From: Bacillota bacterium
GTDB lineage: Bacteria > Bacillota > Negativicutes > JBAXTZ01
Reading direction: 5' to 3'
Length of the DNA stretch: 64,000 nt
Assembly: GCA_037129925.1 (NCBI GenBank)
Contig: JBAXTZ010000001.1
Span: forward strand, 25,155 to 89,154
Shown here: piece by piece, positions 3,335 through 10,705 of the stretch
Position numbering within the stretch: position 1 is the stretch's first letter
Layout of the letters: each line of letters opens with the position of its first letter
The notes under the pieces: generated by a model
Seen by the model: only the letters and a program-made list of their open reading frames with translations
Databases searched by the model: none
What the model was told of the DNA's origin: nothing
Made by a program: the position numbers and the translations under genes

Positions 3335-4648
3335 ATGTTGGAGGTTTTTATGTTTGAAATAATAACACGCTTAATACTTGATTTTCAACAGCAACCGATT
3401 GATAGCAGTTATCCGCGCGCGCTAAAAATCGATGTGCTTGCGAAAAAAGCTACCGTTTGCATCGGTGTCCGCCGCTCTGGCAAATCAACTTATTTATTCC
3501 AGATAATCAACAAACTCTTGGCAAGCGGGATTCCCAAAGAAAGAATTTTGTATCTGAATTTTTTCGATGACCGTCTGCATTCGCTATATCACAACAGTCT
3601 TGAAGTCATAACCGACGCGTATTATTCCCTATACCCAAACAATAAGAATGAAAAAGTTTATTATTTTTTTGACGAGATCCAAATGTTGAGCAACTGGGAA
3701 CCATTTGTCAACAGGCTTATGCAATCAGAGCACTGCGAAGTTTATATCACTGGTTCATCTGCGCGAATGTTGTCCAAAGAAATTGCAACCCAGATGCGCG
3801 GGCGGTCGCTGTCCTGGGAACTATTCCCGTTTTCTTTTCAAGAATATCTGCAAACTAAAGAAATTTCAGCGCCGGCAGGTTCATCAAAATATAAACACGC
3901 CGCAACAAACGCCTTTGAAGAATATCTGCAGTGCGGCGGATTTCCCGAAGTGCTAAGCCTGCAAGCACGCACCCGAGCCAAAGTCCATCAGGAATATTTC
4001 AACGCAATATTGTTTCGCGATATCGTCGAGCGTCACAACATTCCCCATCCCAGACTTCTGACCGATCTTGCCTATCGGCTTATAGATAATACAAGCTCTC
4101 TGTACACAATCAATAGTTTGTACGGTTATCTAAAATCACTGGACCACAAAGCTGCTAAAAGTGTTGTCTCAGAATATCTGGGCTGGCTGGAAGACGCGTA
4201 TTGCCTGTTTACCGTCAGGTTGTTCGATGCATCATTGGCACGCGCCCAGGCTAATCCCAAGAAAATTTACTGTATTGACCACTCTTTCGTCCGCTCAATA
4301 TCCTCTAACATTTTGATAAACAGCGGCCACTTGCTGGAGAATCTTGTTTTCATCGAACTCCGACGGTCGAACGAGGAAATATATTACTACAAGACGAAAA
4401 ACACCCGCGAAGTGGATTTTATCTATCGCGATGAAAATAAACAATTGCAACTAATCCAGGTTTGCGAGCAACTACGGGACGAAGCAACCAAAACCCGCGA
4501 ACTAACCGCGCTGAACGAAGCGATGGCTGAAGTAAATTTGTCTGTCGGCATCATCATAACCATGCATGACGAACAAGAAGTAAAGGTAGCCAGCGGCACA
4601 GTTAAAATCATTCCGGCATGGCGGTGGCTGACGGACAGCAGAACTTAG
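3335..4648 (+). CDS. AAA family ATPase with DUF4143-type C-terminal domain
   Basis: Walker A GVRRSGKST, a Walker B-like YYFFDEIQ, and a C-terminal region typical of DUF4143 ATPases. It is a paralog of the gene at 9242-10591 but lacks that gene's conserved flanks. The start may instead be MFEII at 3350. Confidence 0.75.
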   Translation: MLEVFMFEIITRLILDFQQQPIDSSYPRALKIDVLAKKATVCIGVRRSGKSTYLFQIINKLLASGIPKERILYLNFFDDRLHSLYHNSLEVITDAYYSLYPNNKNEKVYYFFDEIQMLSNWEPFVNRLMQSEHCEVYITGSSARMLSKEIATQMRGRSLSWELFPFSFQEYLQTKEISAPAGSSKYKHAATNAFEEYLQCGGFPEVLSLQARTRAKVHQEYFNAILFRDIVERHNIPHPRLLTDLAYRLIDNTSSLYTINSLYGYLKSLDHKAAKSVVSEYLGWLEDAYCLFTVRLFDASLARAQANPKKIYCIDHSFVRSISSNILINSGHLLENLVFIELRRSNEEIYYYKTKNTREVDFIYRDENKQLQLIQVCEQLRDEATKTRELTALNEAMAEVNLSVGIIITMHDEQEVKVASGTVKIIPAWRWLTDSRT

Positions 4649-5995: not shown

Positions 5996-6247
5996 TCATG
6001 CTCTTGCTTTTTGGCGCGAGTTCCGGCCAGTCGGATTTGATTGAACCCATGTTAGTTTTGATTCGGCCAGCGAGCCAATCACCGCAGCCTCCGTAACAAC
6101 AACGAATTTCCACGGCTGCAAATTGTTGCCGGACGGCGCCCAACGCGCGGCTTCAAGAATTTGTTCAATCACATTGCGCTCAACTTTATCGCTCTTGTAT
6201 GAGCGAACGCTGCGGCGATCCATTATTGCTGATAGCACTTCATTCAT
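5996..6247 (-). pseudogene. nitroreductase family, N-terminal fragment only (truncated)
   Basis: MNEVLSAIMDRRSVRSYKSDKVERNVIEQILEAARWAPSGNNLQPWKFVVVTE is a classic nitroreductase N-terminus. After about 50 aa the sequence loses family similarity, and an overlapping out-of-frame ORF (5904-6143) is also not nitroreductase-like. The fragment abuts the ATPase-cassette relic at 6325. Confidence 0.5.
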
Positions 6248-6324: not shown

Positions 6325-6700
6325 ACATGCTCATTTTTTCAAATTGCTCAGCGATGCGTAATTTGCGCAAATTTCGGAAGTGCCAACAACAGTCACACCA
6401 GCTTAGCTTAAATAATTTTTCAACAAATTTGGCAAACAACCAATCAATCCCAGCGGAATATTCAACACGCCGCCATTTAGGACAAGATTTCTTTGCGATG
6501 TCCGTAGCGCTACTATCGGTGAATACTTATCCCGATATACCTGTAGTCTTTTAGAACGAACTAATTCTGCCGCTTTCACTTCCAGCGGCAGAATTAGTTC
6601 CTTGTATTGAAAGACAAAATCAACCTCAGCTTTATTGCCAGATTACGATTTGTGCAACGAATCACGTTTTTGATATGAATTATGTGTTTGCAAATCACGT
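6325..6700 (-). repeat. relic copy of the DUF4143-ATPase cassette
   Basis: Bases 6325-6412 match 21727-21812. Bases 6405-6640 match 9255-9480, the C-terminal coding end of the intact ATPase gene. Bases 6645-6700 match the leader repeats at 10605-10660. The central ~1.1 kb of the gene is missing. Confidence 0.7.
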
Positions 6701-6805
6701 TTATGGCACGTAATAGTGGCGTATCATTATCAACTAACAATTTTCCATGTCAGATAGCGTATGCCATGTTTTTGAGTTATAATGGAAGTGTAAAGAGGTG
6801 CGATA

Positions 6806-6994
6806 ATGAAAGACAAATATAGATTCACAGACGACAATGAACCGAATGAAATACAGCTCACGGCTCTAATGAAAGAAGTCGGAGCGGGCTTTGTTGCCAG
6901 TTCCGCCAATGCACGGGCGATAATCGATGCTCAAATCAGATCAGAAGTTGAGGCCGTGCGCAAAAGGTTAAGTGTCGATGTTAAGCAAAACTAA
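6806..6994 (+). CDS. small hypothetical protein, candidate antitoxin partner of the downstream kinase
   Basis: 62 aa ORF whose 3' end overlaps the start of the next gene by 23 nt, suggesting translational coupling. Confidence 0.35.
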   Translation: MKDKYRFTDDNEPNEIQLTALMKEVGAGFVASSANARAIIDAQIRSEVEAVRKRLSVDVKQN

Positions 6995-7586
6995 ACCCAA
7001 ATTAGTAATAATTGCGGGTCCAAACGGATCCGGAAAAACGTCAGTGACGCGCAAAATATTGGAACACGAATGGATTGAAGGTTGTACCCAAGTTAACCCT
7101 GATGATATTGCGCGTGATGTTTTTGGCGATTGGAACTCAGACGAAGCGGTGCTTAAGGCAGCGAAGTATTCAACTCAAATCCGCGAACGCTGTCTGGCAT
7201 CACAATCAAGTCTGTTTTTCGAAACAGTTTTGTCCACGTATGAAAAACTTGATTTCATACGAAGAGCCCAAACATTAGGATATTTTATCCGTCTTTTCTT
7301 TGTCGGTACGGACAGTCCTGAGATTAATGCATCAAGAGTAGCCCGACGCGTTATTGAAGGAGGTCATACTGTTCCCATTCAAAAAATCATAAGCCGATAC
7401 AGTAAGTCGATCGCCAACTGTAGTGCGGCTGTATCGATGGTTGACAGACTGTATATTTATGACAACTCAATAGAAAACTCTGATCCGACGTTACTTTTCC
7501 GAGCCAGTTCCGGCACTTTGACCAAAAGATATGGCTCGATTAACACTTGGGCACAAACCATATTTGAAAGTCTTTCTTCAACTTAA
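6972..7586 (+). CDS. zeta-toxin-like / AAA_33 P-loop kinase
   Basis: GPNGSGKTSV Walker A about 20 aa from the N-terminus, a downstream PDDIARDVF segment, and conserved Arg residues. Size is about 200 aa. Resembles the zeta/PezT kinase superfamily. Confidence 0.5.
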   Translation: MSMLSKTKPKLVIIAGPNGSGKTSVTRKILEHEWIEGCTQVNPDDIARDVFGDWNSDEAVLKAAKYSTQIRERCLASQSSLFFETVLSTYEKLDFIRRAQTLGYFIRLFFVGTDSPEINASRVARRVIEGGHTVPIQKIISRYSKSIANCSAAVSMVDRLYIYDNSIENSDPTLLFRASSGTLTKRYGSINTWAQTIFESLSST

Positions 7587-7852
7587 GCTTTCAGGCGCTG
7601 CACATGCGGCGCTTTTTTTCGCGCTTACCCCGACCACCAAAGGAACTCATCAAGGAAGGCTCTTATTCATTTTACGCTACTCCGAAAAAAACCAATAACT
7701 CTGCTGGTCAGCACCTTTCATTACTTCATGTCCCTCGCTACGCCGTCTTTCAACTCGTAGATTCTCGTCGCTCCGGACAGAAACGCCAGCTGCTGCTACG
7801 AGGCGCGACTTCTTCGCATCCGACAGGAAAACCGCGCGCTGCTCGGTCAATT

Positions 7853-8629
7853 TCACTTTTTACACGAACATTTTATTTTCAGGTGGTTTATGTATAGCGG
7901 GCATAATTCCGGTTTGTGTTTATTGCAAAAAGCTCTTTTAAAATATATCAGCACCAAATGCGCCCACCAGGTTAATGGCCGGCCGGGTGGCACAGTAAGT
8001 AAATCGCTGTACCCGTTTTTATTAATCAGCGGCCTCAAATCCAGCGCTTTCACAATTTCCTCAAGGTCTCTTCGCGCCGCTTCGTGACCTATACTTCCCC
8101 GCTTTATACAAAATCCGATACAAGGAAGCAGCAAATCCTTCATGCCGCTGTCAACAGGCATTATTCCGCAATAATAGCCTTTCATATACAGAACACAGCA
8201 CTGAGCGACTTTATACGATGCTCCCTTAACTTTTCTACTTATTAGCTCTATCAGTTCATCGCTTGCACAATTCTGTATCTCAACCGGGTATGTATCAATA
8301 AAATCAATCATTGAACGGATATAGGAAATTCTGGCGGTTGCCAGACCCAGCACTGATATAATTTTTAGCAGATCGTCATCAGCCATTTTTCTAATTTCGT
8401 CATATTTGTACGAACTGAAGCTATCTACAACGCTGATGTATTTTTGAATCATATTGTAGGAAACTCGCGTAGATAATCCGGCAACGAGTAACCTGATTTT
8501 GTAGTCATCAATGGTGTTAGGCCACCACAAATTATTGTCATGATTTTTCAGCACGTGTTCACGTACAACTTTTTCCGCGCTCATGATGTCGAGTGCATTG
8601 TACAAATCGATATCGATAATATTGCTCAC
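7853..8629 (-). CDS. HhH-GPD superfamily DNA glycosylase-like protein (putative)
   Basis: Helix-hairpin-helix plus Gly/Pro-rich loop pattern ...VKGASYKVAQCCVLYMKGYYCGIMPVDSGMKDLL, ending in a conserved Asp. Cys-rich C-terminus. Confidence 0.4.
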   Translation of the reverse strand: MSNIIDIDLYNALDIMSAEKVVREHVLKNHDNNLWWPNTIDDYKIRLLVAGLSTRVSYNMIQKYISVVDSFSSYKYDEIRKMADDDLLKIISVLGLATARISYIRSMIDFIDTYPVEIQNCASDELIELISRKVKGASYKVAQCCVLYMKGYYCGIMPVDSGMKDLLLPCIGFCIKRGSIGHEAARRDLEEIVKALDLRPLINKNGYSDLLTVPPGRPLTWWAHLVLIYFKRAFCNKHKPELCPLYINHLKIKCSCKK

Positions 8630-8731: not shown

Positions 8732-9194
8732 TTACTTCAGTGTCGGCTTCCGGTGAAAATACTCTTCTTTGGTTATCGCCAACCGGATTTCCCACTCAGC
8801 CTTAACGCTGTCAGACAAGACTCGTTCTACCTCGGCGAAACCGGCTTTTTGAAACGCTCTTCCGCTGCGGGGATTATAATCAAAGTACCCGCCAAAAATC
8901 ATATCACAGTCCTTGCAGGTGAAACCGTACTGCACCAGTAACGCGATCGCCGCGCTACCGATTCCCTTGCTCCAGCAGTCTTTCTCCCCGATTACCAGAT
9001 CAATCCGGAAAATGTTCTTGTCCGGATAACGGTCAACAATTTCCTTAATATTCATCTGTTGCAGCCAGCATTCACCGACCGCTTGTCCAGCATATTCAAT
9101 AATGAAGTTCCAAAAAAAATCTCTTCACAGCGAATAAATTCCCGTCCAGGCGTAGCGACAGCCAACTGTTTCGGCGATTGCAGTAATTTGACAT
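8732..9194 (-). pseudogene. GNAT family N-acetyltransferase, frameshifted at an A8 homopolymer
   Basis: ATG at 9194 gives MSNYCNRRNSWLSLRLDGNLFAVKRFF, then the frame is lost at the A8 run (9112-9119). With one fewer A the reading continues WNFIIEYAGQAVGECWLQQMNIKEIV...WSKGIGSAAIALLVQYGF, an intact ~150 aa GNAT. Confidence 0.6.
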
Positions 9195-9241: not shown

Positions 9242-10591
9242 TCAATTCAGATATTTTTTCAACAAATTCGGCAAACAGCCAATCAATCCCAGCGGAATGT
9301 TCAAAACGCCGCCATTTAGGACAAGATTTCTTTGCGATGTCCGTAGCGCTACTATCGGTGAATACTTATCCCGATATACCTGCAAACTTTTGGAACGGAC
9401 ATTTTCTGCCGCTTTCACTTCCAAAGGCAAAATCAGTTCCTGATATTGAAAGATAAAATCAACCTCAGCCGTATTACCAGATGTCCAGTAGTACGGAACG
9501 ATATCCTGCGCGATTAACTGTTGTAGCACGAAATTTTCGGTCAGCGGACCGGTAAATAGCGAAAACATCGGCGAACCTTCTAACAACATTCTGGCAGTAA
9601 CTCCGGTTTTTCTGCGTAACAAACCAACATCCGGAAGATGCAGTTTAAAAAATCTACTGTTAGCATAGGCGTTCAAAGGGAATTGCGGAAGGTCGATCCG
9701 CTCGACTTTGTGCGCCAAGCCAGCACTGACAATCCATTCCAGAGCCGTTTCATATTCACGGGCTCTGGCGCCTTCTTTAACCATGCCGAATACAAATTTG
9801 CCGTTTTCTTTCGCCAATTGTTCGGGAATGGAATTCCAAACTCGCTGAATTCGCGGCACGATTTCGGCAGGCGCATGTTTGGAAAAATCACGCTCATACG
9901 CAAGCAAAATTGCCGCCAACACTTTTTCGGTCTCTTCAACATCCTTACTCACCAGCCAACAGCCAACCGCCTCCGGCATTCCGCCGCACAATAGATAATT
10001 TTGTCGCAGGTCAGTAATTTTTTCAAAAATCGCCAAGGGAATTTCTTCGGCGGCGATGATTTGGTCAAGATATTCACCCAACATGCTTTCACCGGCTGAC
10101 TCAATATATTCTCTGAAACTTAGTGGATGCATCGTGAGAAAGTCCACCTTGCCAACCGGAAACGAACCGGGTTGTGACAGCGTCACGCCCAGCAACGAAC
10201 CGGCACAGACAATATGATATTCCGGCGCTTTCTCACAAAAATATTTTAGCGAATTTAGCGCATCGTTACATTCCTGGATTTCATCAAAAATCACCAGCGT
10301 GTTTTCCGGCACAATTTTCTTGCCATGCAACACGCTCAACGCATGCAGTAATCGCTCCGGATTCTTATCGCGCGCGAAGAGCGCCTGTAAACTCTTGTTC
10401 TCGTCAAAATTAAAGTAGGCGCAATCCGCGTACTCGCTCTCGCCGAATTCCTTTAAAGAATATGTTTTTCCGACCTGCCTGATACCCTGCAGTATTAAAG
10501 GTTTTCTGCGCGGCGACTGTTTCCAGTTTTTCAGTTGGCGATTTATTTTTCTAATTAACACAAGCTTCACCTCATCAACATCCGTCGCCAT
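9242..10591 (-). CDS. AAA family ATPase with DUF4143-type C-terminal domain (intact cassette copy)
   Basis: 467 aa ORF with Walker A GIRQVGKTYS and Walker B VIFDEIQE. The likely start is MATDVD at 10591, since a GTG/Met further upstream lacks an RBS. The 3' end and 5' leader are repeated at 6325-6700 and 21727-21972. Confidence 0.75.
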   Translation of the reverse strand: MATDVDEVKLVLIRKINRQLKNWKQSPRRKPLILQGIRQVGKTYSLKEFGESEYADCAYFNFDENKSLQALFARDKNPERLLHALSVLHGKKIVPENTLVIFDEIQECNDALNSLKYFCEKAPEYHIVCAGSLLGVTLSQPGSFPVGKVDFLTMHPLSFREYIESAGESMLGEYLDQIIAAEEIPLAIFEKITDLRQNYLLCGGMPEAVGCWLVSKDVEETEKVLAAILLAYERDFSKHAPAEIVPRIQRVWNSIPEQLAKENGKFVFGMVKEGARAREYETALEWIVSAGLAHKVERIDLPQFPLNAYANSRFFKLHLPDVGLLRRKTGVTARMLLEGSPMFSLFTGPLTENFVLQQLIAQDIVPYYWTSGNTAEVDFIFQYQELILPLEVKAAENVRSKSLQVYRDKYSPIVALRTSQRNLVLNGGVLNIPLGLIGCLPNLLKKYLN

Positions 10592-10705
10592 AATTTTACC
10601 ATACTTTTTGCAACGATTCACATTTTTGATATGAATTATGTGCAACGCTCACACATTTTTGATACGTAAAAGGTGTATTTAATCATTATTGAATGTTTTT
10701 CATCG
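10592..10705 (-). promoter_or_regulatory. conserved 5' leader of the ATPase cassette with a tandem 32-nt direct repeat
   Basis: 10609-10640 (tgcaacgattcacatttttgatatgaattatg) and 10641-10672 (tgcaacgctcacacatttttgatacgtaaaag) are tandem direct repeats. On the coding strand they carry cataat and ttgcaa hexamers upstream of the ATG. The same leader is present at 6645-6700 and 21870-21972. Confidence 0.45.

Follow-up and report, generated by a model that had tools for sequence, protein, structure and literature searches.

A pair of overlapping genes in a 64,000-nt stretch of a Bacillota genome (assembly GCA_037129925.1, contig JBAXTZ010000001.1, positions 25,155 to 89,154; hereafter the window) probably constitutes a type II toxin-antitoxin (TA)-like operon, a reading to which we assign a probability of roughly 70%. 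The putative toxin is a short zeta-toxin-like P-loop kinase (6978..7586, + strand), and its neutraliser would be the 62-amino-acid (aa) product of the gene that precedes it (6806..6994, + strand, ATG start, TAA stop), hereafter the partner. That the kinase belongs to PF06414 and is named 'zeta toxin family protein' by NCBI was already known. Most zeta homologues have no recognised antitoxin ('orphans'), and few non-canonical pairs have been tested (PMC10532202). The family of the partner seems not to have been described before; it lacks a Pfam model, a structure and an informative name, and no mention of it was found in the literature searched.

Conservation and coupling of the gene pair

The partner family could be detected only through synteny and profiles. 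A single-sequence search with the 62-aa open reading frame (ORF) returned no homologue besides itself, and the ORF had no match in Pfam, NCBIfam or PADLOC and no relative in the PDB, as would be expected if it had arisen by chance in front of an orphan zeta-like gene. However, leave-one-out profiles, from which the window sequence was excluded, matched the ORF at E=1.7e-13 and 3.4e-8, and it was the sole significant match among the 1,214 six-frame segments of the window. Moreover, gene callers predict the ORF on independent contigs, it is preceded by a strong Shine-Dalgarno sequence, and members of its conserved family from different phyla keep E, P, L and M positions nearly invariant. Among close relatives, the ratio of non-synonymous to synonymous substitution rates (dN/dS) ranged from 0.04 to 0.34, with a median of about 0.11; the partner gene is under purifying selection. 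A chance ORF is thus refuted by this evidence, and we leave it a probability close to nil.

The association of the two genes was analyzed in other genomes. Across 58 genome loci, nearly every full-length kinase gene was preceded by a same-strand ORF of 55-90 aa ending at or inside the kinase start. With a profile built from database proteins only, the partner family was found upstream of the kinase in 40 of 45 loci, and the opposite-strand control gave 0 matches. The five exceptions comprised three divergent kinases (at most 41% identity), one truncated kinase, and one kinase, 61% identical to that of the window, which is preceded by an unrelated 284-aa ORF (locus L012). Partner and kinase genes overlapped at 32 of the 39 junctions in the family and, reciprocally, all three partner proteins that were looked up were followed by a Zeta_toxin gene, with an overlap of 4 or 8 nt. 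The pairing is far beyond chance, and the reading made from the letters alone (the sequence-only reading), which had taken the upstream ORF for a translationally coupled partner, is borne out in this respect. The layout is also that of type II TA systems in general, with small, adjacent, co-directional and overlapping genes, the putative antitoxin gene first, conserved as a pair in multiple contexts and phyla.

Both ORFs had been recognised by the sequence-only reading, with a kinase of 204 aa starting at GTG 6972 (6972-7586) and a 23-nt overlap. The two ORFs are indeed present, but public gene calls on four independent contigs of identical sequence, together with the N-termini of 18 homologues, favour ATG 6978 as the start of the kinase, which gives a protein of 202 aa and reduces the overlap to 17 nt. 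The Shine-Dalgarno sequence of the partner gene, AAAGAGGTG (6792..6800, + strand), was read 5 nt before ATG 6806, and a terminator scan located an intrinsic terminator behind the kinase gene (7593..7624, + strand), consisting of a hairpin at 7593-7614, with a 9-bp stem including 6 GC pairs, followed by a T-run. Given this strong ribosome-binding site before the partner and the clean terminator after the kinase, the two genes look like a self-contained, translationally coupled operon. A perfect TATAAT is located upstream of the partner gene at 6778-6783. As no good −35 element was found for it, a promoter at this position is only tentative, and a sigma-70 scan reported no + strand promoter here. 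No operator-like inverted repeat was observed in the 6660-6830 region and no GC anomaly was found around the locus.

A zeta-like kinase lacking the UDP-GlcNAc-binding motif

Residues 5-166 of the kinase matched positions 12-188 of the 199-position Pfam model Zeta_toxin (PF06414; 44.1 bits, E=2.1e-11, gathering cutoff 22.3 bits), and AAA_33 was matched with 30.6 bits (gathering cutoff 27 bits). Homologues of the kinase carry a precomputed PF06414 assignment, and the source names across its family (more than 6,800 clusters of proteins of about 200 aa) are 'zeta toxin family protein', 'AAA family ATPase' and 'predicted ABC-type ATPase'. Only P-loop-level noise was obtained in NCBIfam and PADLOC scans of the kinase and in PDB sequence searches with either protein or either profile as a query. 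The fold of the kinase is nearest to those of zeta, PezT, and AvrRxo1, and not to those of housekeeping nucleoside monophosphate, shikimate or gluconate kinases, and its best profile match is likewise not to one of these housekeeping families; the computational checks suggested by the sequence-only reading thus all turned out in its favour. Polynucleotide kinases are also structurally similar.

The GPNGSGKT and PDDIARDVF motifs, pointed out by the sequence-only reading, are both present, the latter within NPDDIARDVF, and GPNGSGKT (K20), NPD42D and FE82T are invariant in 19 homologues. The catalytic residues were compared with those of the canonical zeta of pRE25 (L066:15753-16616), using the residue numbers of PMC6362051. 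The Walker A lysine (zeta K46, K20 in the window kinase), the aspartate located about 20 residues after Walker A (zeta D67 in IDNDTF, D42 in VNPDDI) and the glutamate ending strand 3 (zeta E116 in VIEGTGR, E82 in FFETVLS) are conserved, so that the kinase has the catalytic core of zeta and PezT, namely Walker A GxxGxGK[ST], Asp and the strand-3 Glu. In addition, R124 lies six residues before H130. In contrast, the GTxR motif by which zeta binds UDP-N-acetylglucosamine (UDP-GlcNAc; zeta G117-R120, including T118 and R120), the hallmark of the canonical UDP-GlcNAc 3'-kinase toxins (zeta, PezT and EzeT), is replaced by TVLS (83-86), which is invariant in the family, and the equivalent of zeta Arg171 is a His. 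Since hhalign aligned the kinase profile with pRE25 zeta reliably over the first ~100 residues only, the GTxR comparison rests on motif and strand register and not on superposition. The kinase, while zeta-like, is probably not a UDP-GlcNAc (UNAG) kinase, the absence of GTxR pointing to another target. The proposal of a zeta/PezT-type kinase therefore stands for family and fold, whereas the motif that binds UDP-GlcNAc is missing. The window kinase is also 70-85 residues shorter than the kinases of the epsilon/zeta (pSM19035, pRE25) and PezA/PezT (Streptococcus pneumoniae) systems, to which it is 14-16% identical.

The closest characterised protein to the window kinase, and the nearest experimental precedent, is Rv0366c of Mycobacterium tuberculosis, which forms with Rv0367c the 'non-canonical PezAT-like' pair PezAT-Mtb (PMC6362051). 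Rv0366c was reported to be bacteriostatic and to be rescued by its upstream gene, and its substrate was thought by the authors to resemble that of AvrRxo1 (Tandon et al., PMC6362051). Both kinases are about 200 aa long, carry a GPNG(A/S)GK(S/T) P-loop, have lost GTxR and are preceded by a small gene in the same operon. Judging from published positions and not from an alignment, GPNGAGKS, Asp36, Glu75, Arg116 and His122 of Rv0366c (PMC6362051) have counterparts in the window kinase, the last four corresponding, at matching intervals, to D42, E82, R124 and H130. The proteins encoded upstream differ, however, as Rv0367c is a 129-aa ParD_like/ribbon-helix-helix (RHH) DNA-binding protein with no sequence similarity to the 62-aa window partner, in which Pfam scans found no ParD_like or RHH match. 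The distributions also differ: the Rv0366c pair was reported to be restricted for the most part to Corynebacteriales, a small number of homologous pairs occurring in Proteobacteria (PMC6362051), whereas the family of the window pair belongs chiefly to Bacteroidales and is also represented in Proteobacteria, Chloroflexota and Bacillota. Another zeta-like kinase, the NAD 3'-kinase AvrRxo1-ORF1 of Xanthomonas, is also associated with a chaperone/antitoxin (AvrRxo1-ORF2, Arc1), but it is a much larger type III effector, and the gene for its partner, a protein of a different fold, lies downstream of the kinase gene.

The partner as a putative antitoxin

In the N-terminal part of the window partner (YRFTDDNEPNEIQLTALMKEVG) lies a conserved acidic segment, YRFTDDNEPNEIQLTALMKEV, which is followed by one long helix; in its AlphaFold model (pLDDT 80.7), a short extended N-terminus precedes a single helix formed by residues 15-61. 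The window partner has the four nearly invariant residues of the family, E12, P13, L18 and M22, and the upstream ORFs share the motif Y-R-[FL]-T-S-x-E-E-P-[TS]-D-E-x-L-x-x-L-M-K-E-V-A-E-E-A. Clustering divides the family into 3,969 clusters at 90% identity and 898 at 50%, and no Pfam domain or meaningful name was associated with any of them. The N-terminal half of the partners is strongly acidic (median charge −5.5), whereas the kinases are basic (isoelectric point ~8.6-9.0), and the partner diverges far faster than the kinase, with a mean column identity of 30% versus 64%. From its position in the operon, its size, the overlap and this asymmetry of rates, all of which resemble those of type II TA pairs, we infer that the partner is the antitoxin.

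It is, however, unlike the antitoxins of the canonical systems. As anticipated by the sequence-only reading, it is unrelated to epsilon (hhalign probability of 0.1% with pRE25 epsilon), and it is predicted to form one helix instead of a three-helix bundle. Neither PF08998 nor HTH_3 combined with a three-helix bundle, which characterise epsilon and PezA antitoxins, was found in it, and no omega-like regulator is present at the window locus. A lack of resemblance to PezA had also been claimed and holds for the window partner itself, a single helix without any Pfam match, but not for every member of its family. In one distant member, P0352 (170 aa, L074:96-608), an N-terminal Xre-type HTH_3 is fused to the partner domain, and this succession of a DNA-binding and a neutralising domain is the domain order of PezA. 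The gene of this fusion is located directly upstream of that of a 197-aa zeta-like kinase (612-1205) and adjoins a phage-type tyrosine integrase. Two in-frame fusions of partner and kinase, P0329 and P0330, were weighed as Rosetta-stone evidence for the pair and set aside, since their contigs are short and of low coverage and the sequences seem to be frameshifted or truncated. Their order is that of EzeT of E. coli, in which a cis-acting antitoxin is N-terminal to a zeta kinase, a likeness that carries little weight, and the window differs from EzeT in having two separate genes.

Partner genes of other types were found upstream of more distant kinases. Relatives with 33-40% identity to the window kinase occur on 624 plasmids, mostly conjugative or mobilisable, and in all three of those examined a small upstream gene overlaps the kinase gene by 4 nt and is not homologous to the window partner family, an instance of the partner swapping encountered in TA families. 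A second, unrelated partner type was observed upstream of more divergent short zeta-like kinases in a Ruminiclostridium metagenome-assembled genome and in Paraburkholderia and Yersinia plasmids (L054:3793-3993, L063:2226-2483 and L064:2253-2474), these partners having in common, at their C-termini, a motif similar to [FY]-P-[DN]-G-[RK]-x-x-x-[IV] (YPDGRREYV, FPDGRRQYV, FPNGKLEKI). Antitoxins thus seem to have been exchanged within the kinase superfamily.

These observations also bear on the possibility of a non-toxic kinase with an accessory or metabolic role, acting for instance on a nucleotide, a cofactor or nucleic-acid 5'-OH ends, with the partner as its regulatory or specificity subunit. 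The exchange of partner families between kinase clades and the HTH_3-partner fusion, which is typical of antitoxins, argue against such a two-subunit enzyme, as does the patchy distribution of the pair, which is horizontally mobile and shows 55-69% identity between phyla. Homologues 63-69% identical to the window kinase were found in Chloroflexota, Bacteroidales, and Burkholderiaceae, and others with 50-67% identity in about 45 reference genomes, mostly of Bacteroidales and also of Gamma-, Alpha-, and Deltaproteobacteria; such a high conservation of the kinase across phyla is indicative of horizontal transfer. Furthermore, the pair adjoins other TA or defence genes and integrases and was never inside a conserved metabolic operon in the loci inspected. 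We thus regard a two-subunit enzyme as unlikely and favour a TA-like operon.

While the gene pair, its conservation and coupling, the kinase fold, the catalytic residues and the domain fusion are observed, toxicity, direct binding, the way of inhibition and the substrate are proposals. In such an operon, the partner would be translated first and the kinase would be coupled to it via the 17-nt overlap, ribosomes that end at 6992-6994 reinitiating at 6978 or 6972, which would set the stoichiometry of the two proteins. The acidic segment of the partner (Y-R-F-T...E-P-x-D/E-x-x-L-x-x-L-M-x-E) and the start of its helix may dock on the basic face of the kinase (K20, R124, H130) and block the nucleotide/substrate site, in the manner in which zeta and PezT are inhibited by epsilon and PezA; in zeta, ATP binding is prevented by the N-terminal helix of epsilon. 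Upon loss of the partner, the free kinase would phosphorylate an essential small-molecule or nucleotide-type substrate, leading to growth arrest. UDP-GlcNAc is an improbable substrate; solely from structural neighbours, the candidates would be NAD-type cofactors, by analogy with AvrRxo1, or nucleic-acid 5'-OH ends, by analogy with polynucleotide kinases. Most members of the partner family, including that of the window, have no DNA-binding domain, so that the partner would be a pure neutraliser, like epsilon, and, as no palindrome was found upstream, autoregulation may be absent or indirect.

More generally, it is conceivable, although we hold it with less than even confidence, that the short zeta-like kinases of this clade act on a target other than UDP-GlcNAc, such as NAD or another nucleotide cofactor or a nucleic-acid 5'-OH, and are restrained by minimal antitoxins of a new class, single helices of ~60 aa whose invariant acidic E-P-x-D-E segment would fill the nucleotide/substrate site. 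If so, the pair would be a widespread growth-control module of the microbiota, as the family is abundant in human-gut Bacteroidales. The locus supplies a partner for a very large clade, prominent in gut Bacteroidales, in which the kinases form at least 6,800 clusters and the partners about 4,000, and a definition of the partner family would allow annotation of thousands of pairs now labelled 'hypothetical protein' and 'AAA family ATPase'. It would also yield a minimal inhibitor, peptide-like in nature, of a zeta-type kinase, as well as a tractable system for finding the targets of short zeta-like kinases devoid of the UNAG motif. The interest of the locus lies in the size of this unannotated family and in the question of the substrate; a TA assignment, well supported as it is, is unsurprising and leaves the general picture of TA biology unchanged.

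Mobility and genomic neighbourhood

An identical partner protein, P0237, was found in at least two unrelated neighbourhoods (L068-L071), one with a HepT/MNT pair and an HsdM_N fragment and another with AbiEii, HTH_17, and a ParA-like gene; Fic was also among the neighbours. Its presence in unrelated neighbourhoods indicates that the module has moved recently. A role in defence is common among TA systems (PMC10532202), and the AbiEii, HepT/MNT, Fic and restriction-modification remnants near related loci would be consistent with a particular form of TA system, an anti-phage abortive-infection module in which the partner senses infection or is depleted in its course, thereby freeing the kinase to shut the cell down. 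However, PADLOC yielded no model match beyond P-loop noise, the neighbours in the window are decayed housekeeping-type genes and AAA_14/DUF4143 ATPases, and the only close 'phage' record is in fact a bacterial chromosome, so that we consider a role in abortive infection quite improbable. This record (L076, MT836462.1, 'UNVERIFIED: Bacteriophage sp.') holds a complete pair, with the partner at 7401-7655 and the kinase at 7646-8248, and the remaining genes are housekeeping genes of bacteria (cobyric acid synthase-like, cobalamin adenosyltransferase, NAPRTase, Asp-Al_Ex permease and fimbrillin). The record is probably a piece of a Bacteroidales chromosome that was mislabelled, and phage carriage of the pair was rejected.

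The sequence-only reading had placed the pair in a stretch of gene decay, and this setting was confirmed. On the − strand, a nitroreductase fragment retaining the N-terminal 73 of 167 model positions lies at 5996-6247, and a C-terminal fragment of a GNAT acetyltransferase (model positions 80-137) at 8732-9055. The segment 6412-6686 is an internally deleted relic of an AAA_14/DUF4143 ATPase gene (9242-10645, − strand), of which the ~1.1-kb middle is missing. A 232-nt direct repeat with 90% identity (6412-6643 versus 9251-9482) corresponds to the 3' end of the ATPase gene and a 38-nt repeat (6649-6686 versus 10605-10642) to its 5' end. The 232-nt repeat might have bounded an insertion that includes the pair but, together with the 38-nt repeat, it is better explained by an internally deleted paralogue of the ATPase gene. 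A third, intact AAA_14/DUF4143 ATPase paralogue is located at 3335-4648 (+ strand).

Finally, a 258-aa ORF without a Pfam match (7853-8629, − strand) overlaps by 4 nt with a 59-aa ORF that comes after it (7677-7856, − strand). Both were called as genes on independent contigs (L001 and L003) and converge on the terminator of the kinase gene, and they may form another small two-gene unit.
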